This document shows positions 1,166 through 64,000 of a stretch of 64,000 bases of DNA, in pieces. The DNA comes from Bilabrum cf. latius (Eukaryota). Every line of letters starts with the position of its first letter. Position 1 is the stretch's first letter. The DNA is taken from NCBI GenBank assembly GCA_965178125.1, contig OZ237745.1, positions 1,240,001 through 1,304,000 on the forward strand, given 5' to 3'. Below the pieces are notes generated by a model. The model was not told where the DNA came from. It did not search any database and saw only the letters and a list, made by a program, of their open reading frames with translations. Position numbers and translations under genes: made by a program.

Positions 1166-2551
1166 TCAGTCAGAATATGTCCATGAGGCAAGTCCCATGC
1201 CTTCCAGCTCCTCCCAGAACGACTCCGGGATCTCCTGGCCCTCCTTGAACACCGCCGAGTTCTCCTGCGCCATGGCCGCGCTGTCCGCCCCTGGGATCAC
1301 CGAGGCAACGCGAGAGTGCCGCAGCGGGAACGCTAGCGCGGCTGCCTTCAGCGACACTCCCCGCGCCTCGCACACGGCCGCAAGCTCAGCCGCCCGCTGC
1401 AGAGCGTACTGCGGTGCATCGGCGTAGTCCAGCTTGAGCTGGAAGGTCCCGTCCTCCCCTTGTTCCCTGGCCCGGCCCTTCTCCAGCAGCGACTTCCAGG
1501 CATCCGCCACCGAAGGATCAGCCCCCGCTGGTGGATCCCCTCCTCCTCCTCCTCCTCCCGCCCCCTGCTGCGCCCCCACAGCCGCAGCCACCAGCACCTC
1601 AGCCGGGGCAGCCAGCAGCCCGCTGTTGTAGGCGCCCCCCACCAGCACCCCCACGCTGTGGCTGTCAGTCTCCCGCTCGTCCAGCAGCTGCAAGAACCCC
1701 CTGCGCCCCTCCCACCTGGTCCTCGCCTCCTCCCCCCCCTGCAGTGAGGCATCGATCGGAGCAGCGTTCTCCATGAGGCTCATGCGCCCCGCCACCAGGA
1801 AGAAATCGAGCAGCGGGGACCCGTCCTCCTCCTTCAGGTCCAGGAACCGCGCCGTCCGGGCCGGGTCCAGCTCGTTCTGCCCTGCGCCCACGGCCTCCAC
1901 GCCCTCACCCTTGCCGCCGCGCATCCGCCCGAGGGCCGCCGCACCGCCCCCCTCGGTCAGCTCGGCGAAATGCTTCTCCGTGCTCTCCGGGGTCTGGTGC
2001 CAGGGATCTAGGTCGTGCAGCACCAGGGAACAGACGTGTTCTCTGGAGAGTCCCAGCCGCTGCAGCGAGTCCTCGAAGGAGCGCGTCAGGGCCGGCCCCG
2101 TGAAGTCGAAGTGCCCGTTGAACTGCAGCCCGCCCGCCCACTGCCCCGGGTCATGGTCGCTCTTGCGCACGGGAGTGAGCAGTCGACCCACTTTTGTTGA
2201 GACCACAGGGGCCTGCTCCTCCCCGTGCTCGCGAATGACCTCGCGCACAAAGTCTCCCACGCGCCGCTCGCTCTAGCCGAATCCGTAGAACGGCGCCGTA
2301 TCCACGATCCGGGCACCACCCCGGTACCCCTCCCAGAGTGCATCCATCGATGAAGAATGAGAAATCTGGCGATAAAGCTCGCCAATTCCCGCTGCACCGG
2401 TGCCAAGCGGGCTCGCTACGGCATGCAACCGAGAGCTGGCATATCGTAGCTGCTGCACGGCCGCGGACCGGATCGGCCTGGTACTTGCCAGCCGTATCGT
2501 TGACAAGGAGCGCGCAATTAGCCTGGATCCTGACGGCGAAACCCTCGACAT
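1166..2551 (-). CDS. Aldo-keto reductase (D-threo-aldose/L-fucose dehydrogenase-like) with a probable mitochondrial presequence; 1 in-frame TAG
   Basis: ORFs 2273..2551 and 1166..2260 are in the same frame and join through TAG 2273-2275 inside the AKR signature DTAPFYGFG[TAG]SERRVG. Downstream motifs: STKVGRLL, FDFT, SLQRLGL, LHD, GAYNSGLLA, SLKAAALAFPLRH..V.SVIPGA. Ends at TGA 1166-1168. The N-terminus is Arg/Ser-rich. Confidence 0.88.
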
Positions 2552-2848
2552 GACTCCTGCGAACCGTAATACGAATAGCTAAGCCTTTACAGATAGCGTA
2601 TCGCGCGAATGCTGTGCAATTCCAGGGCATTTCATGCCATTGATCTGCACTGTTTCAAAGCGATCAAACTAATCTCTAGTTACAACTCACTGATGGTGCG
2701 GACTGAGTCTATTTACAGTCGATAATGTGCAATTTGTGGGAATGCAGCCTCGTGCGCGTCATTCAAAATCTTCATCTTTCAAATATCGAAAATTGAAATT
2801 CTACTTTCCCCCCCCTTGCAAGCCGCGTTGTGTGCTTGGTGCTAGAAT

Positions 2849-4090
2849 ATGATATTGTCTGCAATTGTATGTTTATCTGCTTTTGCGTCTGCAAATAACC
2901 AGGAAGACGGACGGGTTCCTGTGGTTCTGGGCACGGACATTGGCGCAGATTTCGACGATTCTTTTGCGCTGGCATACCTGCTGTCAATTCCACAGGTAGT
3001 AGATCTCAGGCTAGTAATAACAACACTGCATAACACTACCGGTCGGGCTTGCATCGTTTGCAAGTTCTTGCAGCAGGCAGGGCGACTAGATGTCCCAGTC
3101 GCTGTCGGGCAGGAGACCCCAGACGACCACGTCGCCCCGCAGGGTGTCGGGTATCTGTGGCCGTGGGTGGCAAACTACACCCTAGAGAGAGACTGTCGCG
3201 CGCCTTTGCACATGGATGGCCCCAGCGCGCTGGAGCGAGAGCTCATGCGCGGCACCCCCGAGAACCCCGTCTACTTTGTGTCCATTGGCGCCCCCATCAA
3301 CCTTGCCGATGTACTTGGTCGAGCAAATCAAACCGACATCCGAGGTCGTATCCGCATGGTGGCGATGAGCGGATCCGTGTTCAGGGGCTACGACGGGTAC
3401 CCCCCGCCATCCGCCGAGCACAACGTGAAGGTCAACGCGTCGGCCTCCCGGGCCATGTACGACTTCAGTCGGGTTTCGCTCGGCGCCCGTGATCGTGCCT
3501 AGCGAGCTAATCCCACGTGGCCACTGGTCACAGCCCCCGTGGACACGGGCAAGATCACGAGAGTGGACGGGGCCAACTTCTAGGCGCTGCTGAGGGGGGC
3601 CGCCAGTGCCAGTGGCACCTCCAGGATCGCAGCTTCCCTGCTGGAGCAGTTCCGGGTATGGTACTCCAACGGGGGCGACACCAGACACTACCCATGGGGC
3701 CCCATCGGGCCCGAGGTTGCAACCGGCAGCATGTATGACTTCCAGACGGCCATGCTAGCGGTGCAGCTGGCCACTGGAGTGACGCAGAGGCACGGAGCCA
3801 AGGAGGCAGACAGTAGCACTTCAGGGGATCAAGGCGGGCTGTTGGCCACAGGGCTGGGGGCGCCGCCCGCCACGCCCTTCCTTCGATTGCAGCCGCTGTG
3901 GCTGGCAGTAAACCAGAGCGGCTTCACGAACGTTCTGGCGGAGGGCAGTCCGGAGGGCGGGCCCGTGTGGAGCGCCACAACCTGGAGACAGCCGTCAGAT
4001 CCCGCTGGTGTGACGATTGATGGGTGGGAGGTGGATGAGATGCGCACCATGGTGGCAGGTGGCATTGAGGCGATCCTCGGTGCCTAGTGA
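2849..4090 (+). CDS. Inosine-uridine nucleoside hydrolase family protein with signal peptide; in-frame TAGs at 3500, 3581 and 4085
   Basis: A hydrophobic N-terminus is followed by TDIGADFDD..ALAYLL, VPVAVG, SIGAPINLA, MSGS and AEHNV. The frame continues past TAG 3500 into ..APVDTG.. and ..MYDF.. (C-terminal half of the fold) and ends TAG-TGA at 4085-4090. Confidence 0.85.
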
Positions 4091-4168: not shown

Positions 4169-7100
4169 TCATGCGATACTGGCCTCATCGATGGGGTCGA
4201 AGTGAACCGCCTCTGTGCCTCCTCTGGCAGGGGCGCGGGGGGGGCTCCTCTTCATTACCATCATCGGCTGCAGCTGCTGCTGCTGCTGCTGCTATCGTGC
4301 CTCCCCTGCAGAAGCCACGTCAAACGCGCCAGCTGAACGCAAGCCTCCTTCCATCGGCAAAGACCCGCCCAAAGACTCGCCCATTGCCGGCGCTTGGGCC
4401 CACGCACTCGCACTCGCCCTCGCGGCCTCGTCCTCGTCCTCGTCTTCATCTGCCTGCTGCCCCCCGTACACGGACTCGGCGATCGACAGAGACTCCACGC
4501 CATCGCCTGCTCCCATCCCGAAAGCAGACGCTGCCAGTCCCCCGGGCACGTCCGACCGCACCGACGCCGGGCCAGTACGACCGCAGCCCCCGCCCCCCAT
4601 GCCCATCTCGCTTACCCTGCCGTGCACGCCAGGCATGCCGGTCGTGAAGGGCACGCCCCCCATGCCATCGGCAGGGAACATGGGGCCGGCCATGCGCCGT
4701 ACGTGCGCGGCGCAGCTGCTCTGCTCCCCCTTGTGCTCGTCCTCGGGCCCGCAGCACTCCGAGCCGATCCCGATCGAGGCGCGGGAGGCACCATCCGGAT
4801 CCGTCGAGGTCCCGGATGCACTGCACTGCTGCGGAAGTCCGTGCTCCCCCAGCATGACCCGCGCCTGCCAGCCGAAGGGGTGCGAGGCCCTGTCACGCTG
4901 CGGGTGTTCAGAGTCCCCGCGCGCTTGGTCCTCCACCTGCCCAGTGGCTACGGCAACATGCGCCGCCACGATGGGGCTCATCATCACGGCCACATTCATG
5001 TCCGGCCGGATGGTCAGGCTGGGGGTCACGTCTACGGGGTTGTGGTGCGCCCCCTGGTCGGCCTGGGACTGCTGCCCCGTCCCCGCAGCCAGGCGCCTCG
5101 CCTGCGCGTGGAGGACCTTTGAATGCTCCATCGAGGCTGCCTTGAGCCGGTGCAGGTCCCGGAGGCCTGCAGAGCTCAATACCTGCTCTCGAATGGCGCG
5201 GACACGGCTGCGGAGCGGCTCCGGGATCATAGCTACAAGCTCAGCTGGAGAGGGAATTAGGCCCGGGGCCTGTGCCTGTGCCTCGGCCCCGACCTGGCTG
5301 CCACGCGAGACGGGACCGCTCCTGTCCGACACCGCTGCTGCTGGACGTGAGCCAGCTCCACTGTCCGAGTTCCTGCCAGCCCGCGGCAGCTCCTGCACAG
5401 CCTCCCTGGACGCGATCTCTGCGTCGATGAGCCGAAGCATGAGCTTGGAGAACCGCGCAGCAATACCGAGATTGGCAGAGTTGCTGAGCACGCCCATCGC
5501 GTTATTGCTGGGAGCCACGGTCACTCGCTGGCTGTCTCCGAAGCCCTTCTTGTACGACATATTCAGCGAGCGAGTGACGCCAGCGGGGGTCCGAATGCCG
5601 ATCTGAGCCGCGACTCCGGAGGGTAATGATTGAGATCTGCCCTTTGACGCCGCTGCCCCCGGTGACTCTCGGCCGATCGCATCCTCGGAACCATCCGCGC
5701 TGGCCTGTTGAGCAGCATAGTGGGGGGAAGAATGCCTGAACGAAGGCCCATCTGCGCCGCCGTCCATCCAGAACGTGCCAGAGGCTTGCTTGGCGCCCCG
5801 TCCCGAAGCTGTGCCAGACCTGGAGCTAGAACTGGCTTGCTGGGGCCCCGTGGCCGGCATGCCGACTCCTGCGCCGTCCCACGCGTCCACGCGACGCCGC
5901 TAGGGGGCCTGGCCTTGGCTGCTGCGGCGAGACCTTGGCCCGTTGGAAGCCGCCGAGGGCGCGGTCGATCCTCTCGATGCACCAGTCGCCCCCTCTAGAT
6001 GAGTCTTCATCAGATTCATCATGTGCTTCACACGATTTGCACCTTCTTGCCCCGCCGATTCGGACACGAGCGCCATCATCTGTTCCACCATCCGTGGAGG
6101 CGGACCAGCCGTCGCTTGGCGCTTGGGCTACCCGTCCATCCCCGCCATTTGATGGCTGCTGGCAGCCCGGCTGGCACTCGCAGGCTCCCCCGCCGCCCCA
6201 CCACCGCCGCTCAGTTCGGCCATCCGCTGGGCCAGAGCGCCGTACGGTGCTGCCACCACGGCGCTGCCCCTCTGCATCGCCGCAGAGCGAACCATTCTCC
6301 CTGCGGCCGATAGCCGCGGCAGGCTGCCCTCCGCCTCGAGCGGCTTTTTCCCCATGCTCCGGCCGGCCTGCACTACCGTTCGCGGCAGCCACACCCCTGG
6401 CCTGCCCACGCGGTCTGTGATCTCCTTGAGCACAAGCTGCGCCCGCTCCGGCTCGGCCGCACCTGTCTCGAACAGAGGCAGCTGCACGCCACTCTCTCGC
6501 TAAGCGATCCGAAGCATCGCTGCAACGTCCCAGCCCCCGCTGCCGAAGCCAGCCGCCGCGCCCATGGCCAGCCCCCGGCGGGCAGCGCCTGCCTGCCTCC
6601 TGCCCACCAGCAGCCGCGCCGGCTCCCTCAGCGCCGCCGCCAGCCCCACGCTGATGGTCTCCGGCCGCATCACCGCGGTGGTCGTGGGCCCGGCGTCCAG
6701 GCCACGCACCGCGACCTGCACTGCGTCCAGTTGCTGTGACGAGTGGGCGGGGTCCCCGTGCGCCGCTGCCGAGGGATCAATGCCCGCCGCGGTGCTGTGC
6801 CGCTACTCCGGCCTGGGGGCAAGCCCGCTTGCGCCGCTGCATGGGTTGTCGCCGGGGGAATGCGCGCGCAGAGATGCGCCCACCTCCCCGCTGCGAAGAT
6901 CTATGCGAATTCCAGAGGACGGCGAGGAGGACGATGCCGCAGATCCCGCGGTGCTGGAATCGCCACCCCGCATGACACCCGCGGCATCCTCCGCCACCCC
7001 GTGCCGCTGCCTCCACAGCCTGTCCACCGACACGCCCTCTGCCGCATGCTCGCCCGCCATGTCGCCCCCCTGCGCGGCCGCCCGGACCTCTGCCTCTTCC

Positions 7101-10100
7101 TCGTCCGGGTCACCCTCTTTGCCCACCCTCACGAACCCGCTGGCCCACTTGAGGTCCATGGGGAGCAGCCCCTGCAGCGGCTTGATCTGAGTGAGCATCG
7201 TGGTGACCGTGCGAGGGCGGCTCCGCAGGATCCGGCGGGTCAACGCGGCGCGCACGGCCGCTGCCTGGGACTCTGGTGGCCTCAGCGCGCGCGTGATGGT
7301 GTCTGCCGCCAGCCGCCGCATGGCCCTCATCTTGAAGCTGCGCACGCGGGAGAAGAACTTGCGGCCCATCTTCTCGAAGCCCTTGGCGCCCGGGTCCCCC
7401 TGCTAGGAGGGGCAGCAGGCCCCGCCAGTCTCGGGCTCTTGCCCCGAGTCGCCATCACCGCCGCCCTCGGCCTCTCCTCTCTCGCCGCTGCCCTCCTCCG
7501 AGTCGGACTCGTGGTCGCTGTCACTCGCCCCCGCCAGCTCCTCGGCCAGCTCCGGGGAGAGCCCCCCCGCCGCAGCCGCCTCCGCCACCCAATCCGCCGG
7601 GTCCCTGTCGCCCCCGCTCTTCCTCCTGCGCCTGAACCCAGTCCGGGCCTCGGCTGCGTCCACCACGCAGTCGGGCCAGAACTGCATCACGCTCAGCTCC
7701 GTGGCGGTGAAGCTCTGGTAGTGCGCCAGGGGCCAGCCGTCGGCGCCCCACTGCAGGGGAGTCGGCAGCGGGCACTGCTCCGCAAACCCCTCTGGAGGCA
7801 GCACGCCGTCGGAGCCCGTCTCGGGGCTCCCTCGCCACCCCCCTGCGGCGCGGCTCTCGCCGGCTAGGTCACGCACCACGCGGAGGTACATGCCCCTGAA
7901 GTGCATCGCACGAATGCGCGCGGTCTTGGCGATCACGGTGGCCACCAGCCTGGCGGGCAGCGTGGCGGGGTGCAGCCACTGGATCATGTGGCCCCTGCGG
8001 ATGGAGGCCGCCAGGTCAACGGCAGTGGCCCCGAACAGGCGCAGCGCCGCCGCGTTGTGCATGACCGAGTGCGCGGTGAGGCCTTCCGTGCCGAGCCTGA
8101 ACCGGATGCAGGGGATGGGCAGCGCCGCGATGGCTGCCTCGATCATCGTGTCGGCCTCGTCCAGCGCCTCCTGCACCCGCCCAGGGTCTGCATCCGGGGC
8201 CACTGCGTCGCATGGATCCGCGTCGTACGGCAGCAGCTCGGGGATCGTGTGCTGCAGGGGCCGGAGCCGAGGCGGTGGGCGAGGGGGCGGGTCTCGCCCG
8301 GGCCCGGTGGCACCAGCAAACGAGGCAAACGAGGAAGAGGAGGAGGAGGCTGACGGAGCGTTTTCACCCTCCATGGGCGGCTGGGACGCGGCATCAGCCC
8401 CGCCCGCCATGGCTGGCTCGGCCCCTGCCGGTGCGTCCCATGCGAAGGTGGAGCCGCTGTGCGGAGGAGATTCCGGTCCAAACGCCGCCTCTGCCGCGTC
8501 ACCTCGCCTGCTTGCCCGCCCGCGTCTCCTGCGCTTCCTGGCCGGCTGTGCCTCGTCCTCTGCTGCCTTCCGCTGCCCCTTTCTTCCCACGTCAGCCTCT
8601 GCCCCTGCCCTCGCCCCTGGCCCGGATCTGGACCTCGGCAACGGCTCCACGAAGCTCCGGGCGATCCCGTGTCTCTCCATGCAGGCACGCATCACCCAGC
8701 CCTCCAGCCGAGTCACGCCCGCCGCCCCGTACCTTCCCGCCGCAGACAGCCACAGCAGGGCCAGGGCGCGGGCCCGCCCGAACTGGGCCGTGGTCCAGTC
8801 CTAAGCTTCTTCTTCCTCTTCCTTCTCCTTTTCTTCCTCCTTCTCCTTCATGATGCCTGGTCTATGATCAGCGGCGCCAGCACCACTGCTTCTGCTGCTG
8901 CTACTGCTGCTGCTACTGCTGCTGCTGCTGCTACTGCTGGTCGCCGACCCGCTGGTGGCAGCTCTACGCGTCTGCAACTGCGGCTAGGATAGCCCCTGCT
9001 AGTCCTCCCCTGTGGCCTTAGCACGGCGAGTCCCCCGTGCCCGCTGTGCGCCCGGCGAGTCCGCCAGGTCCACGAGCTCGCACTGCTCCTCGGGCAAAAA
9101 GTCGCCCACGCTGCACACGCCTGCGTCTCCTCGCTGGCTCGCCTTCGCGTGCGCACCCTCGTTTGTGCTTCGAGTCGGCGCTGCTTCTGCTTCGAATTGG
9201 CCCGGCGAAGACGACTGGGGGGCGCCCTGCGAGGATCCCACGCTACCGCCCTCTGCCGCGCTGCCCCCCGACCGCAAGCCGGCCCCATAGAGCCCCAGCG
9301 AGACCTGTTCAATGTTGGCGCAGTCGCCTCCTGCCGCCGACCGCAGGAAGTCTTTGTCTCCGCGGGTGAGCCGCAGCTTCAGCTGCTCCCGCCGCACGGT
9401 GCCTGGTTGGCGCGGTTCCTAGCCGCTGCCTCCCCCCATGGCAACACTCGCGCCCCCCTTGTTCCCCCGTGGGCCGGCCGCTTGCCGAATGACCGGGGCG
9501 GTTGTTTCCTGGATGGCTGCCCGGCTCTTGCCCTCCCTCTCGATCAGGTCCAGGGAGGGCACGGAGACGCGGGCACGAGCGGGGGCCCGGCCCACCATCC
9601 ACGTCGACTGGGACACGCCCTCGCCGGCGCTGGAGGTGGAGGTGCTGGAGGTGGTGCGACCAGTGTGCACAGCATGTGCGCCCAGCAGCCGATGCCTGGG
9701 AGCAGCCAGCAACCCGTCGGACCGCCCCACAACGGAGAGCCCGAAGATGTCGGGCAGCACCGTGCGCGGCCGCAGCCACCCCTGCACCGCCACCCCGACC
9801 CCGAGCCTGTCCAGGATCTCAGCCGCGTCCGCGAGCCCTCGCCACGGGCCCATGCTCAGGTCTTGACGGGCCTGCCACGGGGCACTGACCACCCTACCTC
9901 TTGTTCCCTGGCCTCTTGTTCCCCGGGAACCCCTGCTGCTCCTGCGATAGGGCATCAGCACGCCCTCGCCCCCAGGGCCTGAGCCGTAGGCCGCCTGTGC
10001 CCTGGCAGTCAGCCGACCCATCCCGTCCTGCCGGGGAGGCGCCTCTTTCCCCTCTTCGGTTGTGTCCTTGGGGGTGCGGCCGGACCACTGCACCTCCGCG

Positions 10101-12028
10101 TGGCCCCAGCCCAGCTGAGGCTCGGGCTGCTGCTGGAGGGCCCCTGCCTCGGGCGCTGTGCCAGCCGCTGCCACGGCTCGCCATCCACCCCCGTCCTGAG
10201 GCGCATCCCACACCGACGCGCGCTGCCCCGCTGCCAGCTCCACCGCTCTAGATCTGAGTACGCCTCGCTGGCGCTCCGACCCAGCCCCGAGCCCAGCGGC
10301 ATGGTCCCGCACCGCCGTCTGCAGGAGGTCCAGGAGAGCGCCCCCCGCAGTGCTGCCCTCGCCCTGGCCGCCCACCCCCACTTTGGCGTCCGGGATGGCT
10401 CCAGTCTCGATCCCCACGGCCACAACCTCGTCGTCTTCCTCCTGCTCAAGGGCGGCAGACACCGCAGTGGCTGTCGAGCCAGCTGAGGGATTCCGGGTCC
10501 CCCTGCCAGCGAACCCCAGCTGAGACCCTGCACCAACACCGCTGGCATCCTCATCCTCCTCCTCCTCCTCTGCACCCCCCAAATCGCCCCGTCCTCGTTT
10601 CCTGCCGGCCAATCCCCGGGCAATCCGATCGAGCAGCTGAAGACGGGCTCCCGCCCCCATCAGCGCCGCCCGCGCCGCCTCCACGCCGGCGTCAGCGCCC
10701 ACGGCGAAGTCCTCCTCCATCTCCAGCTGTTCCCTCAGCCGCACCGCCTCTTCGAAGTCCTCCTCGCCGGCTCCAGAGTACCCCGAGGCCATGGACCCAG
10801 CATCGGCATCGGCATCCTCGGGCATGCCCCCCATGCCCAACATACCTCCCGGGACGCTGTGGCCGTGAGACCTGCTGCCGTCCAGCCTACAAACTTCGGA
10901 TTCCCCGTCGTCCTCATCATCCATGGTTAGCCCGCTCCGAATGGTCAGCCCGGTCCGACCTCCCACGGAGCTGCCCGCCTGCGACATGCCGCTGTCCATG
11001 CGAGAGTCACGCCGATTGCCCCCCTTCTCCGCAGGACGCCCCCTTGACCATGGCGCCGCTCCCAGTAGCGCCCCCTGGTGACCCCCCGCATCCTCCTCCT
11101 CGCCGCCGGCGCGCCTGTAGCCCAGATTGCCTCCAGCAGGTCGATGCACACCCAGACCCAGACCCAGACCCAGGCCCAGCCCCCTGCGCCCGTCCTGCGC
11201 CCAGCTCCCCGTGCTGGACCCCGCACCATCCTCCACCACCTCCTCGTCGCCTGCACCGGCCGGGGGGCCTGCCCGTGCCCACACTTCCTCTCCGCGGAGG
11301 CGCTGGTGCAGGCGTATCCTGCCCTGCAGCGGCTCGGAATCGACCGACGCGCCGTCGGTTCCCCCCTCGTCGTCATCCTCGCTGCCCGAAGTCGAGTTGG
11401 TCGAGTGCCCGCTGACAGTGGCCGTGGTCGCCCCGGCCGTGCCTCCGAGGGACTCCACCGCACCACTTGCGAGCGAAGCTTTGCCAAATTGGGTGCTAGA
11501 CGAGGGCCTATTGGCCGCTCTCGCCCGATGCTCCGCGCGCGCTGCTCGCTCCTCCTCGACCACCAACATGGCAGCTGCCTGCCTCGCCGTGGCAGCCGCC
11601 AACTGCCTTGCGGCTTCGATAGACTCCATTCGCTCGTCCCACTCATGCTCATCTCGCATCATTACCGATACACTCTGTCTTGAGCGCACATCTCGCGCAG
11701 ACAAGAGCGCGTGAGGACGTAACCGCTCCGGAACTCCGCTGTGACTGGAATTCAATGCCAGCTTCATCGCTGCCTGGGCCTGATCGAAGCGATCCCTTGC
11801 CTGCTTCCTGCGGCGAACAGTTGCCTTGGTGTCTCTACATTCTCTTCCTAGCTTCTTGCAGCGCGAACAGGGGCGGTCTCCATCACATTTGCGTCTAGCC
11901 TTCGAGCACTCAGCACATGCAGTACCGTGGGCAGCTTTCAGCAGCTTGAACCCGCTCAAGTCTGTCGACACATTGCCATTCGCATCTGTCAAGCCACTCG
12001 TACCGACTGAGGCGTGCACTGACTGCAT
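4169..12028 (-). CDS. Very large (~2,600 aa) Zn(II)2Cys6 binuclear-cluster transcription factor, mostly low-complexity, with a possible central PAS-like region; about 10 in-frame TAGs
   Basis: CAECSKARRKCDGDRPCSRCKKLGREC lies near the N-terminus. ORF-track fragments 9419, 8999, 7403, 6803, 6500, 6128, 5900 and 4292 all share one frame and each ends at TAG, with further TAGs at 8984 and 8801. The first TGA is at 4169-4171. The start codon is tentative. Confidence 0.8.
4268..4294 (-). repeat. Coding polyQ tract TAG-(CAG)6-CTG-CAG
   Basis: Read directly in the frame of the Zn2Cys6 gene. Confidence 0.85.
8885..8938 (-). repeat. AGC/AGT trinucleotide tract encoding poly-Ser
   Basis: In the Zn2Cys6 gene frame it reads as Ser codons. 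Confidence 0.75.
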
Positions 12029-12279
12029 TTCGTCGATTGGAGCAGCCGAAACTGAACTTTCCTGGAAAGTGTCCCAGCTGGCGCTATGGTTTCGTTTGAG
12101 GTACCAATTGCAAGCTCAGGAAACGTGGATATCAATTTGAATATATTCGGGCTGTTGCTGTTTCTGCAGCCGATCTGTACGGTCCGCGCACGAAATATCC
12201 CGATTAATCCGAAGTCCCGTCAATCATTGCAAAAAATGAAGATGAAGATAGATCACCACCGAGCAAGTCTTCATCACCT

Positions 12280-14248
12280 TCACCAACCCCTGCGCTTGAG
12301 CTCCTGGAAGATCCCATCTCGGGCTTTCTTTGTCTTGGCGAACAAGATCTCTGGGGTCACCTATTTGTGCGACCATCCGCCGCTGGGCTCGCGGAACACC
12401 GTGTATCCCCCGATCTATGCGATGTTGCCCACTGGCTGCCCCTTGCTCCTCTAGAGCACCTCCATCCGCAGGCGGGCCTCCTCCATCCAGCGGTCGCACT
12501 GCCGCCGCACCTCGTCTGCCTTGAGCCGGAAGTGCGCCAGCACGGCCTCTCGAAACTCGGCAGGGGGCCTCTGCAGCGGCTCGAGGATGAAGTGCTGCAT
12601 GGTGGCGGCCCTCACGTGCGCGTTGTAGGCTCCCGACCTGCGCCTGCCCCCCTGCTGACCGTAGCCAGACTCATGCCCAGGCTCGTTGTAGTAGGGATCA
12701 GCCACCAGGATCTGGCTCTGGATGGCCAGCAGCACCTGCGCCAGGGTGCTCTCCTTGGGCCTCCACCCGGGGCCCGACCATGTGCCCAGCAGGCTGAGGC
12801 AGACCTTGCCGTCCACGTACAGATTAGGATTCACGCGGGCGGTGGAGGGGCTCCTGAATTTAGCCACGGGGGGCACGTCGGGGTAGGAGGCGGGCAGGCA
12901 CACGTCAACGAGCAGCACGCCGCAGCTGTACGGGCTCCCGCTCGGGCCCATAATGGCGGCCCGCATGACGTCCATGCGCGCCTGATCCACGCGGGCCAGC
13001 ACCGCGGACTCGTACTCGAGCGCGAGACGGGGCAGCCCGGATAGCTCCGAGCTCACGCGCATCAGCCGCCGCATGCGAGTGGCTCCTCCCGCGCCCGCGG
13101 GCACCAGCTTGGCCGCCATGTGTCCGTTGGTGAGACCCTCCACGGTCTGGTACACGAGCGGCTCCATGACCCGCTTGTAGGCCTGCCGCTGTTCCTCCGT
13201 GGGGAACACAGTGTCCCACCTGGGCATGCAGGCAGCGGGAGTGTGCCGCTTGGCCTGAGCCGCCCTTGCTGACGCCGCATCCCTGATTGCAATGGGCCCG
13301 CTGCGCACCAGCGAACAGCCAGCGGGCCAGCCGGCCCCAGTCGCAGGCTTTACGGGGCCTTCCTTGGCGGCCTGCCCCCCCGCAGCGGCGGCTCCTGTCG
13401 CGCCCCCCCACTTGGAGTCCATCCCGGGGAGCCCCGCCTCCTGCATCGCCGCGATGGCCCGCTCCACTGCCACCCAGCAGGCCGAGGCCCACCTCCGCAT
13501 GCCCCTGCCCATCACCTCCAGGCATGCCTCGGCCCGCCGCCCCAGGGACAGCATGGCCTGGTACTGGGCTTCCTCCTCCCGAGTGCCCTGCATGCGGGGG
13601 GCAGAAGCGATCGATGCGCCAGAGGCCTGTGCCTTGGACTTGGACTTGGACTTGGGCTTTTTGCTGCTGGCTGCCGCGGCTGCTGCTGCTTGCTGGGCCC
13701 TCTGCCCGGTGGAGCGGAAGACCTCCGCCTGCTGGGCCAGCTGACGCACGCAGCCTCCCAGCGAGCCGGCGGAGAGCAGCCCCACCAGCTCGCTGGTCCC
13801 ATCCTGGACACCGTCGCGGACCGCCTCCGCCGACATCTCGGTGGAACCCGCCCTTGCATCCGTCCGCAGCGCGTTGATCACGGTCTAGTAGCCCCTTTCG
13901 GCGCACATGGACCGGATCCAGCCCAGCGGAGACACCCGCCGGATGCAGCTCTCCCGCAGCTGGTGAGACGACGCGGACTGCTTCTGCCCAGAGGCCGCAG
14001 CTCCCGAGGAGGAACCAGACCTCCGCGACTTCGACACGCCCTGCAGTAGCTCTTTGGCCTCGTCCTCGTCAGCGGGCGCGTACCCTAGGAAAGGGACGGT
14101 GGAGGGGCACTGGCCCACGGCCTCTACCAGCGATAGAGCAGCGAAGAAAACCTTGCTGCGGGCCTGCATCTCCAGCAGTCCAGTGCGAAGGAGCGGGAGC
14201 AGCGCGGCGTGCAGCACGGAGGGCGCGGGGGGCTACACGGCGCCACTG

Positions 14249-14284
<36 letters not shown>

Positions 14285-14567
14285 GAGGCTGAGGCCCGGG
14301 GTCTCTTGGCCCCGGCGCGTGAAGGTGACCCGTCCTGCTGCGCGGGTAGGGCCAGCCCGTCGGCTGGGGGTGTGCCCGACTGCAGGAGAGCCAGCAGCAG
14401 TGGGTTGCACACGGCTTCCCACTCGCGAGGGTCCAGCAAAAACAAAGACACGCCTTTGCTGGCGCTGGATGCAGATGACGACGAAGAACAGGACAACGAT
14501 GCACCAGATGCGCTGCCCTTACCCTTGCCCTTTCCGTTTGACCTTGCCTTTGCCCCTGCCATGCCCC

Positions 14568-14600
<33 letters not shown>

Positions 14601-15744
14601 CCTCCTCCTCGGAGTCCAGTAGGTCCACCACCTGCGGGCTGCCAGTCCCTCCCATCGGCTGGGAATCTGCCTCTCCCAGCGTGACTGTGGCGGCCCGGCT
14701 ATGTTCCCACTGCGACTGCAGCAGCGGGATGCCCCTCCTGACCGCCTTCAAGGCCTTGCACAGCGCCCCGTCCTCCATCTCCTGCCTTCTGCGAGCAGCT
14801 TTCTTCAGCAAGGTCGTGTTCGCAGAGGCGGCCGAGTCTTGCTGGCTTCCCGCGAACCCGATGCCGCTGCTTGCTTGCGAGCCTTGGGTTTTCTTCGCGG
14901 CCGATGTTCGCTTGGCCGCCGCCAGCTGCACGCCCTTGCCCTTGCCCAGCCCGAGGGCAGTGGCGAGGCGAGCGGGCGACAGACCGTCCAGGAGGACAGA
15001 GGCGCGCCGGATCTCGGCCACCTGCTAAACCCCGGGCCACAGCCGCGCTACAAATCGCATCGAATCTGCGTGCCCCGGCTGGAGCTTGCCCTGCCGGCTC
15101 GTCTTGGAGTACTGCGCGAAGCCGGGCACCGCTCGGCCCGAGGCAGAGGAGACGACTGCGGAGCAGCTCTTGCAGACCGCCGTATGATCCGTGGCACTCG
15201 ATTGCAGAGCGAGCTAAATGCAGATGGGGCTGCCATTTTGGTCGGTTCTCGCGAACGGGCTGCCGCTGCCCATGCTGGCTCCCGGTGGTGAGGCTGATTT
15301 GGACATTGCGACTGCAACCGCCTCATCTCCGTTGTCACTGTCGCTATCAAGCTCTATCGCTGCAGCACCAGCTGATGACTACTATACTTTCTTATTTTTG
15401 CCAGCCGAAGATCCTACAGGCTTGTCGTCATCGCTGGAATCACATAGCTCCACCACGACCACCTCTGGGCTGCTAGCAGCTTTGGCTTTTCGCCTGCGTG
15501 AGGCCCTTCGTTTCGCCTCCGGAGCAGCATTTTTTAGTAATTCCTTGGGTGTAAGCACCGCTGAGCTGAAACCAACACTCTTTAGGACGGAAATAACCTC
15601 TTCATCCGGCGCGGACGGAATCAGACCTTCCACTGCTGATCCACATGACCCGCAAGGCAGGCTGCCTTTCGTCAGAAAAGACACGGTTTTTTGAAGTAAA
15701 GGGAAGTCTTTTGACTCGGATTCGTGCAACTGGGGCCTTTGCAT
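12280..15744 (-). CDS. Ubiquitin-conjugating enzyme (BIRC6/UBE2O-type UBC domain) with a long N-terminal extension; multiple in-frame TAGs
   Basis: GPSGSPYSCG..DVCLPASYPDVPP..NPNLYVDGKVCLSLLGTWSGPGW..STLAQVLLAIQSQILVADPYYNEPG, with the catalytic Cys intact. One frame is broken only by TAG (15382, 15379, 15214, 15025, 14233, 13885, 12451, 12415, 12361) and ends at TGA 12280-12282. The ATG at 15744 is tentative. Confidence 0.82.
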
Positions 15745-16012
15745 ATCGCCCACGCTGCCTGCGAGCAAATGCGTGGGTACTTGAGTCGCACTTTACTTAA
15801 TACAAACAACGATTCTGAAAATATACTCAGCACAGTACTATGTATTCATACCTCTTTGACTGAACCACCAGTTCACTGGCAAATTCATTGCTGTATCCGA
15901 GGAATATTGTAGCATTTCACCATATGCCCAGCAATTATTGTAAGGTGCAGAAATATGGTGAAAGTCTTGATTGGCCTGTTTTCTCGGCGACAGATTCAAG
16001 TAGCGAACAGCC

Positions 16013-16207
16013 ATGCACTTGATGTTTTACATGAAGGATGGAAAGAGGGTATACACTTTGTAGAAGGTCACCCCTGACGGGAAGTTGCCGACCAAGTCTG
16101 CGCACCCTGCTAGGTTCAGTCCCGACGACAAGTTCCAGGAGTACAGGGTTCAGATGAAGAAGAGGCATGGCAAGCTGCTCACGCAGAAGCCCGTGACACC
16201 CATGTGA
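16013..16207 (+). CDS. NOP10: H/ACA snoRNP subunit Nop10 (64 aa); in-frame TAG at 16061
   Basis: Manual translation gives [16 protein letters not shown][TAG][62 protein letters not shown] is the Nop10 signature. It is missing from the ORF track because the TAG splits it. Confidence 0.93.
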
Positions 16208-40536: not shown

Positions 40537-40698
40537 CGGGTACAGGAACGGTGGATGGCAGCGGGGCTTGCCTGTATTCGGGCGGTGGGCGGGGGTGCCA
40601 CGACAAAAACCGTGCGATGTATTCTGTGCAAATGAGTTCTATGCTACAACGACTTCAAAGCAATCAAGTCACGCAGAGGAGCGGCGGCTCCACTCGGC

Positions 40699-52600: not shown

Positions 52601-55600
52601 CATATCTGCTGTAAACGAAGAGCTTGCAGTCCACACAGACCCTGCGTCTGAGCCTAGTCCGTGTACAAGCAACTAGGTTGCCTGCGGAATCCAAAAGTGC
52701 CCAGCTAATGTGTCCCATCTTCCCCCGACTACGTCTTGCAACGCTGAGAGGGCCCCGTTTCCTTTTCCGCCCGTAGCTCTGGGCATCTCATACCATTGGG
52801 AACGCAAGAAGTTCCTTATTTCGGGGTCCCGGGGCGTCCAAGCTTGGCCGCCAGCCATCGATCGTGCCGACGCCCCGGCGCCAGGCGAACTCTCCCAGTA
52901 GGATCTCGGCCTTCCTATTTCTTCGCGCCACTCGCGCATCTCAGTTGCACGTTCACACCGACCCCACGCTCGCTCAATGCTGAGAGCAGCGTGTCGCACT
53001 CTTGCATCTGCGGCTGCAGCTGATAGGACGACACGACGATGATGGAGCAGTCTAGTGGGTCGGTTGATCAAGCTACCTGCATCAAGTGACTTCTGCTAGA
53101 AGTCGGGCGAAGAGGAAATGACAGCCTGAACCAGACCGACGGCATCACTCGAAGCAGCGCGCATCATAGTCAGGTCCGCACCGAAAGCAAACGCAGCGGA
53201 AATGCCAATCGTTGGTAGCACCCAGCTCTGGATTGCGCCACGACACCACGCATGCCATGCACCATCAGTCCCTGTGGCAGATCGAAGTACAATACGGCTT
53301 GCGGCAGTCTACAATGGGTAGTAATGTCTACCAAGAGTCTGTACCCGAGCCATTGACAGGGAAGCTCCCCAGCCCCCGCTATCGTGGGACAAAACGCACA
53401 AAGATCCGAGAGCATGAAGGATTGACTGCCTCTCCTTCTGCGTTACGCCTAGTGCGCCTACCTCGTCTCCAACCACGACTGATGTTCCGCGCTCGAATGA
53501 CAATTGCGACCTCTCGCCGGCTTGCAACCAACCTGATGCCAGCCGCAGACAAACTCTGAGTACCAGTGGATCCTTTGAGTTTTGCATGAGCTTGCATGCG
53601 ACGGAGATGATGGTACTTCGGAATGGCGGCTGCATGAGTGCTCTCTCGCCGAGCATACGGAGAATCAGTAGGAGTGCCCTGCGGCGGTCCTGCGATCGGC
53701 TCGCTGCCGCCGCTGCGCCGTTGTCAGTCGAAGTGGACGACCCTGTAAGTCCAGATCTATTCGTCTGAGACGAGTCTCCTGCGGCCTCGTTGGTCTCGTC
53801 GTCTCCCTTGCCACGCTGCCTCTTACGTCGATCAGCATCATCGTTGTTTTGCTCGTCCTCGCTCGAGACAGACAAGTCAAACGCGCTGTCTTGCCGACCC
53901 CGTAAATGGTCAACGGCAAGCGTCTACAACAGGGAATGAAGTGTTGCAGCAACCACGTCAATAACGTGCGGGACAGCTCGGTTAAGCTCACGAACAGTTC
54001 GAAGCAGACCGATGAGATTCCTACAGTCCACGCAGCCGTGTGGAGTCGATGACTGGGAGCCAGGCCCATCATCGAGCGCAACAGACGGCCTTGCAGAGGT
54101 GTACCCGCGCTACTCGTTTTGTTCCCTCCTTTGCTTTGCGAGTTCACAAGCAGCGTCTAGGCCACCATATCGGTCGAGTTGGTCCAGAGCAACACCTTCC
54201 AGCCCGGGCGAGGCAGCCGCAAGGGTATCGCGCATTTTCCGCCAAGCCGATGCTGCCTGCTTGTCATCATCAGCCTCACCGCCCGTCATTTCATCCGGAA
54301 GAGCTGGCTCGTCGCCAAATGGCCCCGTTCTCGTCCCATCGGGCATCTTGATAGATCGTGGCACCTGGGTTCGTGGCTCAAGCTACTCCGCAGCTATTTT
54401 CGCAAGCTGACGCTGCTGGTCCGGCGGCTGTCGCACTGCAGCGCACAGCCTGAAACTCAAGCATGACACAACCCATGGAAAGAATCGCACGTGGGCGAGT
54501 CTCCACGGTGGCATAGCAGGTGGATAGAGCTGCAGGATGACCCGAAGGAGCCTCCTTAGGAGTCTATGAACCCGCAGGGAAGATGATGAAAAAGCAGGAG
54601 TGAGCCGCTGCATCAGTGCCCCGGCATTGTCCACCAAGAATCGCTAGCTTGGCGTCTGGCTCTGCGATGCAATCGCGTTCAATACCTCGAGCACTGCAGC
54701 CAGCGTTTCACTAGAAGTATTGCTGGCTGAGTCCGATGAAGATATTGTGCCCCGGGAGCTTACAGACTAAATCCGATGGAAGTAAACGGATCGCAAGGGT
54801 GCGTTCTTCCACACTTGGAGCACGTGTCGAACAAGGCGCAGGCACCGTCGAGAAACGCCTCTCGTCTCTGGCGATTCTGCAGTCACAAAGGCCTGCCTTA
54901 CAGCAAAGTTTGAGACCATTTCTACCATTTGGCGACCAGCAAGCCCATGAGACTACAATGCAGACGATGCTGGCCGTGAGGACGACTGGTTCTTGTCGGT
55001 CCATTCTGTCTACGAGTCACGAAGTAGTTTCTCAAGGTATGCCTGGCCGCGCTCTTGTGCCACCTACTTGCGCGCCCGTAGCTCCCAAATAACCATCACC
55101 GTTGCAAGGTCAACTGCTAGGAACCTATGAGGCATACTCAGGCTTTGTGGAAGACCAAGTCGAGGCAAAGCATTGACCAACAACGTGGTGAACTACTTCC
55201 TGAACTGGAAGAAGAGACGTTCGTGAGCAGCAATAAGCCTCCACAGATGCACAATTTGTGGGGTCGCGTGGCTCTCGTCGTTCAAGATTTTCTTCACCCA
55301 ACGAACTGCTCGTGCAAGCTCATCGGAAGATAACCAGCGACGCATGCTGCGAACAATCGTAGTCAACGCCCGCCGGACAGGCACTCTGGTAGTGGCACTC
55401 GTGTCAGGGCGGCAGTCTCTCAGCAGCGAGACAAATACCTGGAGCACAACCTTCGAAGGGGTGTCGAAGGTTGCTATGAACCGAGTTACAAGTCCATAAG
55501 CCCTGTACTTCAACGGAGTATCGCGATGACGCAGGTGTTGCCACGCAAATCTAATCAGTGTCCGCCTCTCTCGCATCAATGCGATTGGACGAACCGCGGA

Positions 55601-58600
55601 CAAGCATGACGATGCCCGGAGTAGTTGCATTAGCAAGCTATCGCCACGACGAGCGGAAGCTGACACCCCGCCCACAGAATCCCATACTCCTGCCACATCA
55701 GCATTGATACCGCCGGCATATGAGGATCGCGGTGGGGGCACGCCGTCCACAAGGGCGCGGCAAGGCATGACAGCACTTCCAGTAGGAGCCAACAAGCTCT
55801 CATCTGCAGAACCCGATAGCCCATCTGAAAGCTTGAGCATTCGTTCAAGCACGTCCAGTGACAGGCTCGCCGGCATGGAATCACGGGTCGGAAGTACAGA
55901 GCCGAGGAGCTCGGGGGGACTAGGAAGCCTAGCCAAGTCCAGCGTTGGCCGTGATGTCACCGCATGTGACGAATCACGTTGCTTTCCAGCTGAGCGTTCT
56001 GCACTCGACCCGTCTAACCCACTTGAACCAGCAGCACGTTCCAGGCGGACGCCCATGTCCAGCAGGCCAGCTGAGCTGACGCACGCCTCAACGGCACGCA
56101 AATCCTGCGATTTAGTGCGTTCTAGAGACAACGTTCGCCGCATGACTGGAGTAGCCACCAGTCGCAGCATGAGCGCCTACAGTTCGCGACCTGGGACCTC
56201 CCCATCAGTTGGGTCTTCAGTGAGCAGACCATTGGGCTGTTGGATTCCAAGCAAGAATTGAGGCAACCCATTACGTGCCGGGAGTCGCCGCTGCGCAGAC
56301 GATGGACCATCAGCTTCGCTCGACTCTGCTCCAGATGCAGCTGTTTTCTTCTTCGAAGCCGATGAGGACTCAGCTGCACTAGATGACCCAGATTTGCCGG
56401 CTTCCAATGCCAGCTTGGCTACTTTCTCTCTAGCCTCAGCGCTAGTGACAGCTGCAAGTGGGCGGGCCTGCGCCTGTCCAGACAAAATGTCTCTAGATGT
56501 CTTTAGGAGTGCACGGCGAAGTGCGGCAGGCGCGTACGAGGGGAAAATCCGTGACAGCAGCGCCAGTATCGGAGTCACGTCGAATGCTCCGTTTGGAAGC
56601 AACAGAATGGGCAGCAGGTCCAACACCGGGCCCATGCACCCGGGGCGAGCTGCTTGCATTGCTAGAGACACCAAGATGGCGATGCAGTCCTCCATCTCTT
56701 GAGCATACCCAATCGTATCCATAGTATTCGAGCCTCCTAAGGTACGGGCGGATGCATCAGCAGCCGGGGTCCCGTCCAACTTGCGAACCGCTTCGCAATA
56801 TGAATCACCTTCGTCCTCATCCACTGCAGATACAGCCACCCCGTTGCGGCTTTCCTTTTTGGGTGAGCCCAGCGAGTCGCTGGAGTCCTCTGTCCGGATC
56901 GTGCCGTCCCGCATGTGGGCTCGCAGCTCAGCAGCCCTGGCAGGGCTACAAGCGAACTTTCGAATGGATTCCCTTGCAGCCATGGCACCGGCGCTAAGGA
57001 TCCATTTCGGGTCAATATCACAGAGCATTCGACAGATTGACAGTCCTCGGCGAAAGAGTTTTCGGCGTACCTCAGGAGTGAGTTCGACCGCTGGTGGGGG
57101 GCGGCTAGGTTTGTCGCTGCCATCCTACTTCTTCTCAGAGCCCGCTTCCGCTTTATCATCCGCTCCGGTCGAGCCAACTTCTGATTCTGCCTTGTCAGGC
57201 GGTGCGGTTTCCCCAGCTGAAGACTTGTCATCTGAAGATGCCCTCGGCTTCTCACCATCCAGGCTATCGGTTGATTTCGTGCTGCTACTGCGGCTGCCAC
57301 GCCGCTTTGCCTCCTGATCAGACATCCTGCGATGAACCTTTTCATAATCAGCTCGGATAGCTGCCCGAAGGGCTGGTTGGCCCTCGTCCGGATAAAAGCA
57401 AGCGCTGGCAATGAGTCGGGACCCCTCTTCCGATCGCATGTGGTAAAACAGTGTGCGACCCTCCCGGCTGCGAATTGTGTATTGCAACAAGGTAAACACT
57501 CGGTCATCCAAGAGACTTGATGCGCACAGGAAGTGTCTGGTCGACAGCTTCGAGTAACTAGATAAAAGGGATGCCAGTGGATCTCTGAATGGACTACTCA
57601 GAGCACCGAAAGCCTGCGATACTGGTAGTGCCGCTTCAAGTCGCACAACAGCATCGATGGTAGCTGGAACAACGTGTGATTCCACATGATTGAGGTACGG
57701 CAGAACATTGATGATTCCAGTGGCTACCCGTGGCTGCGGCCTCAGCAGGTTGGTCACTTGAACCAGGAACGGCGGGAGCGGCTGTGCTGGCAGCCGAGCT
57801 CCAAGTGCTTGTGGTGGCCTAAACACTGAAGGGTGGATCACAACAGTGCTTTGCTCTTGCCCTGCGCTCCCAGGCCTGCCAATCGGCTTTACAGTTTGTG
57901 GCTCCTCTCCAAGCTTCACAGCGGCATTGAACGCATCGGCTACCTCGTTGCCACCGGCTTCCTTAAGCATGTCGCGGAGGACGTCTGGATCACACCATCG
58001 CTGGACGTCACTGAGCAGCTTGGAAGCCAAGTCGGCATTAAAAGCCTCACCAAGAAGCGTTAGAAGCGCTGCGATCGATTTCAGCAGAGGGATACTCAAC
58101 TTAGAGGGGTCTTGGAGCACCTCAGGCACCTTGCGCATCTAAAACCGAAGCGTCGAGGGGCTGATCTGCTGCTGCCTGGGATACTTCCGATTCGCTGTGA
58201 GCATCCGCATCAGTGCCCCGTGTGCGCACGCAGTTACGGCAGAGCTCCCCTGTCTCAAAGCCTCAAGCAGCGTTGTGGCACACTCATCCTTGATCTTGGA
58301 ATCGCTGCTCTGAAACAGCACTTTGGGAGCCACGCTGACTGTGGCGCGGATCGTATCAGCAAAAGCCATTCGAAGCAAGTACGGATAGCCAAGTGGCTTC
58401 AGCTCCACATCAGGCGGTGGCAATCCTACAGCGGACTCTCTTATGTGCTTTCCAGTCATGCCTTGAGGAGTCACGCCGGCGCCAACGCTTGCACCCCATG
58501 ATGCGCACTCCGGACCGTCTCTACCCCATGCCCAACCGCCTTCAGGTAGCAGCCAATCACCAGCACCAACGACTCTTGAGCTGAGCGCGCCAGCAGATCC

Positions 58601-61600: not shown

Positions 61601-64000
61601 TCGGACGATTCGAATTGCAAGCGACAAAAGCTCTTCGTGCCTAGGTCCGCTAGCTAGAGCTGCGACGACATCCCACATAACTGATGCATCAACAGAGTCG
61701 GCAGCCAGAAGCTACGGCACCGTACGAGGGGCACCAGGCTGTGAGTCCTACGGATCAGGCTGGACAGTGCGCACGATTGTTTGCAACGTGATCAGTCTCA
61801 CAGTCGACAGGAGCAGTGGGGTAGCCATTGAGTGCAGGTGCCTATCTCCAGCAGCCAAAGCAAGGCCTAACAAGACCCTTCTTAGAGACAGTTGGGATGC
61901 CTACCTATTACCGGCATGCCTGAAAGGGGCGGGAAACGACGCTTTGCTGCCAGATGAGATCGGAGACTTGGAGAACCCTGAAGCAACTCGGTCCACAGCG
62001 GCATTGAGAAGTTCGCTCATCGAGTGTTTGCCTGTTGAGATAGATTTGCTCGCTATCAAACCGGCGAGGGTTGCTCTCAGGAACTGAACTGCACATCGCT
62101 TGGCATGTACAGGGCCTCGAGGGGCCTCCTCAACCGCTTCTTCCCACCCCCATCTAGCTATTGCTGGGACTGATCCAGGTTCCAATCCGTGCGCCGCCTC
62201 AAAAAGTCTGGCATCGAGCTCTTCCAATGGGGAAGGGTCCCCAGGAGTGTCAAAAGGTGATGCAGCTGCAGGTCGTCCATCGGCAATCTTCGGTTTTTTC
62301 ATCTATCCAGCATCCAATGGCCCCTCCCTGGCAGCTGTCATGCCACTTTGCTGCTGCAATTTGATTTCATCAAAGTACGGGCTTTGCGCCCAGGGCACTC
62401 TTGGATCGAGCGAGCCCACAGTTGTCGTGCTGGCTGCCCGAAGCGGCGTTGCCAAGTCGTCCTCACTTTCCCCATCATCAGATCCGCAATCGACACCAGC
62501 ATCAAGCTAGTTGGGTTGGTCTCTTGCTACAGGGACATCGCCCTGGGGCGTCGATACATCCCCTTTCCGCCCGCCACGGACAGTCAAACCAGGTCCTGGC
62601 GGGCCAACTAAAGCGAATGCCGGCAAGTGCGCCTCACCACCGGCAGGAAGAAAGTGTCGATTCAGCAGTCGGAAAGAGTGCAGTACCATGGAATCCAGCG
62701 GCAGCAGCGCTCCACGCTTGCCTATATCAACAGATTCATTGCCAGCCTAGCTATCGTGGACTGCCTGTACGTCATCTTCTCCTACTCCTTCTTCATCAAC
62801 CATTTTGCGTGATTCTGCGGCACTTTCAGCACGTGGGGAAGACTCTGACGCTGTCGTGCGCCCCGTAGGCCCCGGCTTCCAGGCAACCTCAGCCACCACA
62901 CCTGCTTGCGGCGCGGTTGCTAGTGCTATTCTTGGTGGATCGATCAAAAACTTTCGATTCTAACCGCCAAGCTTGCCGAGGACTCGAAGTGCATCGGTGC
63001 CGTACGGAGCTGGGGACCCTAGCAAAAGGGAGGACAGTGCCGCCATCAGAGGGCGCAGGATCGTTGGCTTCGATAGCATCGGGAAAAGGAAGCTTGGGTT
63101 GAGATTGTCGATCCAGAACTCAAGCGTTCGCAAACCGGTCCCAACTAAATCGGTTGCCGCTAATGTTTCGCCGAGCCGTGAGCCGTCTGCCCTTTTCTTG
63201 GAGCTTGCACTGGACAAACTGTCGTCGCGATCGCTCTGCCCGTCTGCACCTGGACTCACTTGCGCTGCCGATGGCGATCCGATGGCTGCGCCCATCGGAG
63301 CCGCGGCATGCTTTCTTGCGGAGCCTGGAGTGTGCGAAACTCCTGCTGGATACACAGCTGGTGCAGCTGCGACTCGGCCATCCCTTTCAACTGGACCAGC
63401 GCCGGTCCCAGCTCCATACTATGGAGACGGGCGTGACCTGAGCGCTAGAATCAACGGGCCCATCAACCTAGGCAGCCACTTGAGCTGGTGCGAAAGTCTT
63501 GCCGGCACGATCAGCAGCAGCTCAGTGCACTGGTCACGGAGCTCCGGGTCGACCATGGTAGATCTACAAGCCAGCAGTGAGTCCAAAATGAGCGGTAAAT
63601 GGGGAGGAAACGCTCTGAACAGGTGGTCTGACCTCGAATTTGCTACTTGCTTAAAAAGTTGTCGAAGCAAGCTGAGATGGTACACTGGTCTCTTGCACCC
63701 CGGCATGCTGCCCAGAATGCCAACGAGGAGGCTGGAAATAAACCGCACCAGGATTCTATCGTGGACTCTGAACACCTTTGCTAGAGAATACAGCACTAGC
63801 CTGCATAGTCGCACGACAGTAGCCGCCCTGGCATGTGGCGGAAAGCATGCCAGTGGCGTCTCAGCAGTGATCGGCGGCGATAGCGGGTCCCTGACGTCTG
63901 GGCCAGGAGGCGGTGGAGTTCTGTTTACACCAGGCCGCGGCCCTTCTCCTGGCCTCCCCTCAGCCGACGGCCCATCTGAAGTCGCGATCAAAGCTGTATT
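43631..64000 (-). CDS. TRRAP: TRRAP/Tra1 PIKK pseudokinase (5'-truncated at the window edge), more than 6,780 codons in one frame
   Basis: HEAT-region motifs ELLLIVPARLS, GLRTLEFWIDNLNP.FL.P, LRVLGKLGG, LSSPFRDPL and AVRWVKKIL. FAT motifs WRNRLPNRWD..VW.SLLTWRHHVF and HPQAIYYQLR. The degenerate PI3K-like domain lacks DRH/DFG (LPFRLS is present) and the FATC end is SPSWHPWM-TGA. I read the gaps between ORF-track fragments by hand and found only TAG interruptions. Confidence 0.93.

Follow-up and report, generated by a model that had tools for sequence, protein, structure and literature searches.

The DNA studied here is a stretch of 64 kb from contig OZ237745.1 (positions 1,240,001 to 1,304,000 of the forward strand; assembly GCA_965178125.1, deposited as Bilabrum cf. 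latius). We call the whole stretch the window, and we ask what the codon TAG (UAG in the message) means in its genes. The window is eukaryotic nuclear DNA, with spliceosomal introns, a poly(A) run in RNA-like data and a gene for TRRAP. Its GC content was 0.63 overall and varied from 0.55 to 0.74 across 4-kb intervals. With the standard stop codons the open reading frames (ORFs) fell into many medium-sized pieces, and with TAG left open they became a few very long ones. Translation with NCBI table 15 opened the frames of the window, and UAG is very probably read as glutamine, as an ordinary codon of that table, judging from the comparison with close relatives described below.

Genes and stop codons of the window

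Fifteen genes were delineated, most of which could be named by searches of Pfam and of the Protein Data Bank (PDB). For 13 genes the count of TAG codons starts at the first ATG; the two remaining genes were added to these. The genes are as follows (positions in the window, strand, product, in-frame TAG codons, terminal codon).

1166 to 2686, minus strand: aldo/keto reductase (Pfam PF00248, E 9e-22); 2 TAGs from the first ATG; ends in TGA.
2726 to 4090, plus strand: inosine-uridine nucleoside hydrolase (Pfam PF01156, E 7e-12); 3 TAGs in the coding sequence; ends in TGA.
4169 to 12115, minus strand: Zn(2)Cys(6) cluster protein of low complexity, 2,648 codons; 10 TAGs; ends in TGA.
12280 to 15792, minus strand: large UBC-domain (ubiquitin-conjugating) protein (Pfam PF00179, E 3e-17); 9 TAGs; ends in TGA.
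16013 to 16207, plus strand: NOP10, 64 codons (PDB Nop10 match, E 4.8e-17); TAG at codon 17 (16061-16063); ends in TGA.
16345 to 17615, minus strand: membrane protein in two ORF pieces (16345-17103 and 17130-17615), no Pfam family; no TAG in the coding-looking parts; ends in TGA.
17823 to 19829, plus strand: fusion of sterol-4-alpha-carboxylate 3-dehydrogenase (3-beta-HSD; PF01073, E 5e-56) and cytochrome b5 (PF00173, E 4e-22); no TAG; ends in TGA.
20147 to 25084, plus strand: ARMC9-like (cilium-associated) gene (Pfam PF21050 and PF23138); 9 TAGs; ends in TAA.
25085 to 31591, plus strand: gene without a Pfam family, open over as many as 2,168 codons; 13 TAGs, of which the first 209 codons hold 5; ends in TGA.
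31809 to 36557, minus strand: gene of 1,582 codons without a Pfam family, of low complexity and containing a coiled-coil stretch; 2 TAGs; ends in TGA.
37896 to 38918, plus strand: catalytic subunit of protein phosphatase PP1, last exon or exons (Pfam PF00149, E 5e-48); no TAG; ends in TGA-TGA.
39793 to 40536, plus strand: synaptobrevin-type SNARE (Pfam PF00957, E 3e-25); 1 TAG; ends in TGA.
40699 to 41420, minus strand: small spliced gene of a cysteine-motif protein, upstream end of the first exon approximate; spliced message with 3 TAGs in frame; ends in TGA.
41543 to 43447, plus strand: spinster-like transporter of the major facilitator superfamily (MFS; Pfam PF07690, E 2e-33); 5 TAGs; ends in TAA.
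43631 to 64000, minus strand: TRRAP/Tra1 (PDB Tra1/TRRAP matches, E 1e-57, with the FAT domain); 58 TAGs; ends in TGA-TGA.

At least one in-frame TAG was present in 12 of these genes, whereas the genes ended in TGA (13 of 15) or TAA (2 of 15) and never in TAG. For a count independent of the choice of start codon, ORFs were read from stop to stop with TAG as a sense codon, and the 11 long ORFs, 18,662 codons in total, were kept. Their coding frame held 113 TAG, 9 TGA and 2 TAA. Each TGA and TAA was the final codon of its ORF, so none was internal, and every ORF could be read without a frameshift. Read in the two alternative frames, the same DNA gave 126 and 121 TAG, 277 and 338 TGA, and 49 and 63 TAA. 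The coding frame thus held about as many TAGs as either of the other frames but excluded TGA and TAA, a pattern far beyond chance. The GC-richness of the DNA fails as an explanation, since TAG and TGA do not differ in base composition.

An earlier note on this DNA, made by eye from the letters and a list of ORFs, had claimed that UAG is a sense codon while UGA and apparently UAA terminate, with more than 100 TAGs in 12 of 15 genes, 13 ends at TGA and two at TAA, and neither internal TAA or TGA nor frameshifts. The same numbers were recovered here. TRRAP and NOP10, which the note had singled out among the genes with TAG, were both borne out by the PDB matches listed above; under the standard code NOP10 would be truncated at codon 17 of its 64.

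TAG also behaves like a regular member of a codon family. It made up 113 of the 876 TAG, CAG and CAA codons (12.9%), close to the number of CAA (141). The base 3' of TAG was C in 38 cases, G in 38, A in 21 and T in 19, much like the base 3' of CAG, and we therefore see no readthrough context.

Several features of single genes were noted beside this pattern. One TAG of the aldo/keto reductase falls within a conserved N-terminal motif. In the nucleoside hydrolase the last sense codon is TAG, the reassigned codon itself, giving a TAG-TGA end at 4085-4090. Tandem TGA-TGA ends were found in TRRAP (43625-43633) and PP1 (38916-38921). The frame of TRRAP runs for 6,789 codons or more: it reaches the edge of the window without closing, and its 5' end lies beyond; solved TRRAP/Tra1 chains in the PDB have about 3,700-3,900 residues, and relatives from the same clade as the TRRAP of the window about 6,200. 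The ARMC9-like ORF and the ORF at 25085-31591 lie in one frame with a single TAA (25082-25084) between them. Past that TAA the GC content drops from about 0.72 to about 0.55, and the following 209 codons contain 5 TAGs and neither TGA nor TAA. We see two readings of this stretch (25082-25700): the gene that follows may have an arginine-rich presequence at its N-terminus here, or the frame may be open by chance.

No Pfam family was found for 25085-31591 or 31809-36557, for either ORF piece of 16345-17615, or, in the gene at 40699-41420, for the last exon. The names given by eye to two of these, sterol cycloisomerase (16345-17615) and MIC19-like (40699-41420), were dropped. An intron is presumed between the two pieces of the former, from the ORFs rather than from RNA. 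The low-complexity protein of 2,648 codons at 4169-12115 has an N-terminal Zn(2)Cys(6) binuclear cluster; this domain is best known from fungi, and the organism here is an apparent stramenopile. In the 3-beta-HSD fusion the cytochrome b5 domain is C-terminal, and the same pair of domains was found in the match from Cafeteria roenbergensis and in several others.

TAG codons in sequencing reads

Four sequencing runs contained the whole stretch, and three more, with other organism labels, contained 0.70 to 0.91 of the sampled words. Runs with a small share of it, among them some labelled algae metagenome and protist metagenome, were given no weight. Four runs from three studies, X1 (DNA-like) and X5, X6 and X7 (RNA-like), were compared with the window over 37000-56999, and the results on reads given in this section refer to that interval.

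X5, X6 and X7 each had contigs joined across both introns of the gene at 40699-41420 (40987-41089 and 41214-41302, with GT..AG borders on the minus strand). The last exon of that gene opens with one of its TAGs. A poly(A) run was seen in X7 at about 39023, shortly beyond the stop codon of PP1, and depth differed more than 100-fold between PP1 and TRRAP. We took X5-X7 as RNA because of these spliced joints, the poly(A) and the uneven depth.

The interval holds 48 TAG codons, of which the listed pieces of X5 covered all 48 and those of X6 and X7 12 each. No differing letter, insertion, deletion or joint was found at any TAG in the four runs. A single X5 contig of 20.8 kb spanned 13.5 kb of TRRAP without a joint, and the RNA-covered part of the gene was free of introns. 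Among the findings that, according to the earlier note, would speak against a sense UAG were TAGs spliced out, TAGs edited, and CAG in the reads at these sites; none of these three was seen. Since the TAGs were unchanged and free of joints in X1 and X5-X7, RNA editing, splicing-out and assembly error are not supported as explanations of the TAGs.

The MFS and TRRAP genes are convergent and lie 183 bases apart (43447-43631). Their RNA-like contigs in X5 overlap at 43507-43524, which suggests that the 3' untranslated regions of the two genes overlap.

The amino acid encoded by UAG

The amino acid was sought in related sequences of TRRAP, the gene with the most TAGs. A near-identical strain was represented by TRRAP fragments of 64-405 residues with 91-98% identity to the window, all called with the standard code and all from one 34-kb contig. 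At the TAG positions of the window TRRAP that these fragments covered, the strain had Q at 8 of 9 and E at the remaining one. Seven of its fragments, and one from a more distant relative, end exactly at a TAG of the window. The public protein entries concerned (P0124-P0128, P0136 and P0278-P0282) are TRRAP pieces of 64-405 residues that start at an internal Met and break at TAG. Compared with the window in this way, these short TRRAP "proteins" are an annotation artefact of gene calling with the standard code.

A more divergent relative was provided by a metagenome contig, L001, which was obtained in a metagenome scan with fragment P0141 as the query; a scan with the 1,200-residue end of TRRAP as the query gave no relative. 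L001 is 70.5% identical to the window TRRAP over 1,643 codon pairs, and its own TRRAP frame of 1,666 codons contains 23 TAG and neither TGA nor TAA. Opposite TAGs of the window, L001 had CAA four times, CAG once, TAG three times and eight other codons once each. Opposite TAGs of L001, the window had CAG six times, CAA once, TAG three times and thirteen others. Taken in both directions, glutamine codons made up 12 of the 33 non-TAG partners of TAG, and every other amino acid had three at most. When the codons of the window were taken as the starting point, TAG of L001 faced 6 of 62 CAG codons, 1 of 57 GAG, and none of the TGG, AAG, TAC, TCG, TTG or CTG codons.

Distant homologues were less informative. 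At a conserved TAG column of the MFS transporter, 19 of 66 matches had Q and 22 had S, and Q was found in 7 of the 12 best matches having a residue there. The TRRAP columns and the PDB alignments of distant homologues did not single out an amino acid; the close relatives did.

The following points weigh against the reading of UAG as an ordinary glutamine codon. In the comparison of the window with L001, 21 of the 33 non-TAG partner codons were not for Gln, and the near-identical strain has the E mentioned above. TAG columns were not dominated by Gln among distant homologues: one TRRAP column had V, I or L in 84 of 123 matches, and the TAG column of NOP10 is K or A in solved structures. That TAG never terminates is judged from 15 genes, a small sample. 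As to the RNA, no run containing the stretch is on record as RNA, the kind assigned to X5-X7 was an automatic guess, and X5 was flagged "probably DNA". As to the machinery, ARAGORN found no tRNA genes within the window, and the window itself does not contain the gene for the release factor eRF1.

One alternative is that UAG has two meanings, being sense inside genes and a stop near the 3' ends of mRNAs, as in the ambiguous codes of Condylostoma, karyorelicts and Blastocrithidia. The limited number of gene ends leaves some room for an occasional use of this kind, and in the nucleoside hydrolase at 2726-4090, with its TAG-TGA end, the TAG could be the real stop. No gene of the 15, however, ended at a TAG without TGA or TAA directly after it; TGA or TAA closed every frame, and several genes have TAGs only 3 to about 80 codons from the true stop. 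We consider a double meaning very unlikely.

A second alternative accepts that UAG is translated, but with a different residue, of the kinds found in other lineages (Leu, Ser, Glu, Tyr or Lys), or with a mixture from near-cognate tRNAs. The mixed columns among distant homologues, the K or A in NOP10 and the single E in the near-identical strain could be taken in its favour. Against it stand the eight Q residues in that same strain and the partners in L001, among which the 12 Gln were followed by Asp with 3, Ser with 2 and Leu with 1. The codons for the residues proposed instead behaved differently from CAG: TTG, CTG, TCG, TAC and AAG of the window never faced a TAG of L001, and GAG did so once in 57 codons, against 6 of 62 for CAG. 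We regard this alternative as highly improbable.

That the TAGs are not translated as written, being assembly or sequencing errors, marks of pseudogenes, or sites of U-to-C RNA editing or splicing, has nothing in its favour that we could find, and a negligible probability given four runs from three studies without a single difference from the window over 20 kb, RNA-like contigs that retain the TAGs, 18,662 codons free of internal TGA and TAA, and a divergent relative with the same pattern at mostly different positions.

We thus keep to glutamine as the reading of UAG. By sequence comparison, the UAG = Gln code was shown to be common to at least three related genomes: that of the window, that of the near-identical strain, and that of a relative about 30% divergent in protein.

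UAG very probably serves as an ordinary Gln codon, with UGA as the main stop and UAA as a minor one. As to the mechanism, a tRNA-Gln with the anticodon CUA would decode UAG and not UAA. Changes in the N-domain of eRF1 would abolish or lower the recognition of UAG while keeping that of UAA and UGA. Both steps are modelled on other such codes, as described in the parts of PMC5304391 used here. The tRNA and the altered eRF1 are proposed by analogy because the window contains neither a tRNA gene nor eRF1; Rfam likewise gave no match at the gathering score within the window.

Lineage of the organism and known code variants

The closest named relatives of the window proteins were stramenopiles. The best named match of the MFS transporter was from Cafeteria roenbergensis (42% identity), followed by oomycetes, and that of the 3-beta-HSD/cytochrome b5 protein was also from Cafeteria (40%), with the same fusion. 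The best named matches of TRRAP came from Pythium, a MAST-3 single-cell genome, Achlya and Lagenidium. Two trees were made: one of the C-terminal part of TRRAP, with 29 of the 150 listed matches and L001, and one of the MFS transporter, with 45 of 120 matches.

In the TRRAP tree the window and L001 formed a pair (SH-aLRT 100) inside a clade of seven rows (SH-aLRT 100), along with a sequence from a transcriptome and with TRRAPs, about 6,200 residues long, called whole under the standard code. This clade was sister (SH-aLRT 99) to one of MAST-3 and the oomycetes Pythium and Achlya. The clade with the support of 99 contained all named stramenopiles, and a haptophyte and opisthokonts, including Amoeboaphelidium, fell outside it. 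In the MFS tree the window grouped with Cafeteria and with a sequence from the same transcriptome (SH-aLRT 81). The placement comes from two single-gene trees with few named rows, none of them named from alveolates or rhizarians. From the best named matches and these trees, the organism is probably a stramenopile on the Bigyra or bicosoecid side. The earlier note had judged that the DNA does not look like that of a ciliate, and the matches and the trees agree with it. An aphelid origin was considered and rejected: Amoeboaphelidium has UAR (UAA and UAG) = Gln in the sections of PMC11687900 relied on here, and its TRRAP stands with those of fungi, far from the window.

Because the nearest full-length relatives of the TRRAP were called whole under the standard code, the code change looks confined to a small clade. 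The literature searched, with subscription journals, supplements and database notes outside reach, contained no report of a stramenopile with a changed nuclear code. A 2024 overview of stramenopiles touches on codes only through a reference on mitochondria, and a paper on a bicosoecid reports only the mitochondrial code 4. This is consistent with the proposal of the earlier note that the reassignment is independent and possibly undescribed.

The code variant itself, table 15, is already known. What the window probably adds is an independent origin of a UAG-only code, in a supergroup and in a GC-rich, UGA-terminating background for which we found no earlier description. UAG and UAA nearly always change meaning together, and most reassignments of stop codons have been described in AT-rich backgrounds in which UAA is the usual stop. 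The fuller claim is that this is the first change of a nuclear code among stramenopiles and that table 15 arose independently here, in a small clade of cultured strains and uncultured relatives whose nearest relatives with full-length TRRAP keep the standard code, and in a GC-rich (0.63) genome that terminates mostly with UGA. We give it an even chance of being correct in all its parts.

If it is true, this would be another independent uncoupling of UAG from UAA, and in an unusual background of high GC with UGA as the main stop. Lineages with such uncoupling are natural experiments on discrimination by eRF1 and on the origin of tRNA(CUA), and for this one genome and RNA data already exist from several runs. 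There is also a practical side. Gene callers using the standard code shred the genes of this organism in public protein collections, and annotations and phylogenomic matrices that include it will contain errors as long as table 15 is not applied.

Among known systems, the amber-recoded phages (TAG = Gln, "code 15") share the codon and the amino acid with the window; they are viral and bring their own suppressor tRNA, in contrast to the nuclear DNA here with its introns, poly(A) and TRRAP. A change from stop to Gln is the easiest route chemically and mutationally, because TAG and CAG are one transition apart.

The same step from stop to Gln was taken in the UAR = Gln codes. The parts of PMC11687900 drawn on here list many ciliates, ulvophycean green algae, Hexamita, Streblomastix and Amoeboaphelidium protococcarum under this code, in which UAA and UAG have both changed. 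The window differs from them in that TAA ends two genes and occurred nowhere inside the 18,662 in-frame codons, where the other frames had 49 and 63.

Codes in which UAG alone has changed are closer. As far as covered by the same parts of that paper (McGowan et al. 2024, PMC11687900), UAG alone became Leu in a rhizarian and in ciliates, and Ser in Scotinosphaera. The uncultured rhizarian exLh and Scotinosphaera (PMC11687900 and PMC5304391, each in part) resemble the window in that UAG is uncoupled from UAA in a nucleus other than that of a ciliate. They are unlike it in the amino acid, since TAG partners in the comparison with L001 were Leu in 1 of 33 cases and Ser in 2 of 33, and the close strain had Q at 8 of 9 positions and Leu at 0 of 9.

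The change of UAG alone to Gln is listed, in the portion of McGowan et al. 2024 (PMC11687900) used here, for Iotanema, Protocruzia tuzeti and two lineages of phyllopharyngean ciliates. Protocruzia and the phyllopharyngean lineages use the same table 15 as the window, whose best named matches, unlike those ciliates, are stramenopiles. In Iotanema spirale, according to the part of Panek et al. 2017 (PMC5304391) relied on here, UAG is Gln and UAA a stop, a tRNA(CUA) is predicted, and eRF1 carries T32G in the GTS motif. The window shares with Iotanema the same table, with UAG alone reassigned to Gln and uncoupled from UAA. Iotanema, a fornicate, belongs to Metamonada and has UAA as its dominant stop, whereas 13 of the 15 genes of the window end in TGA and the organism belongs to an unrelated supergroup.

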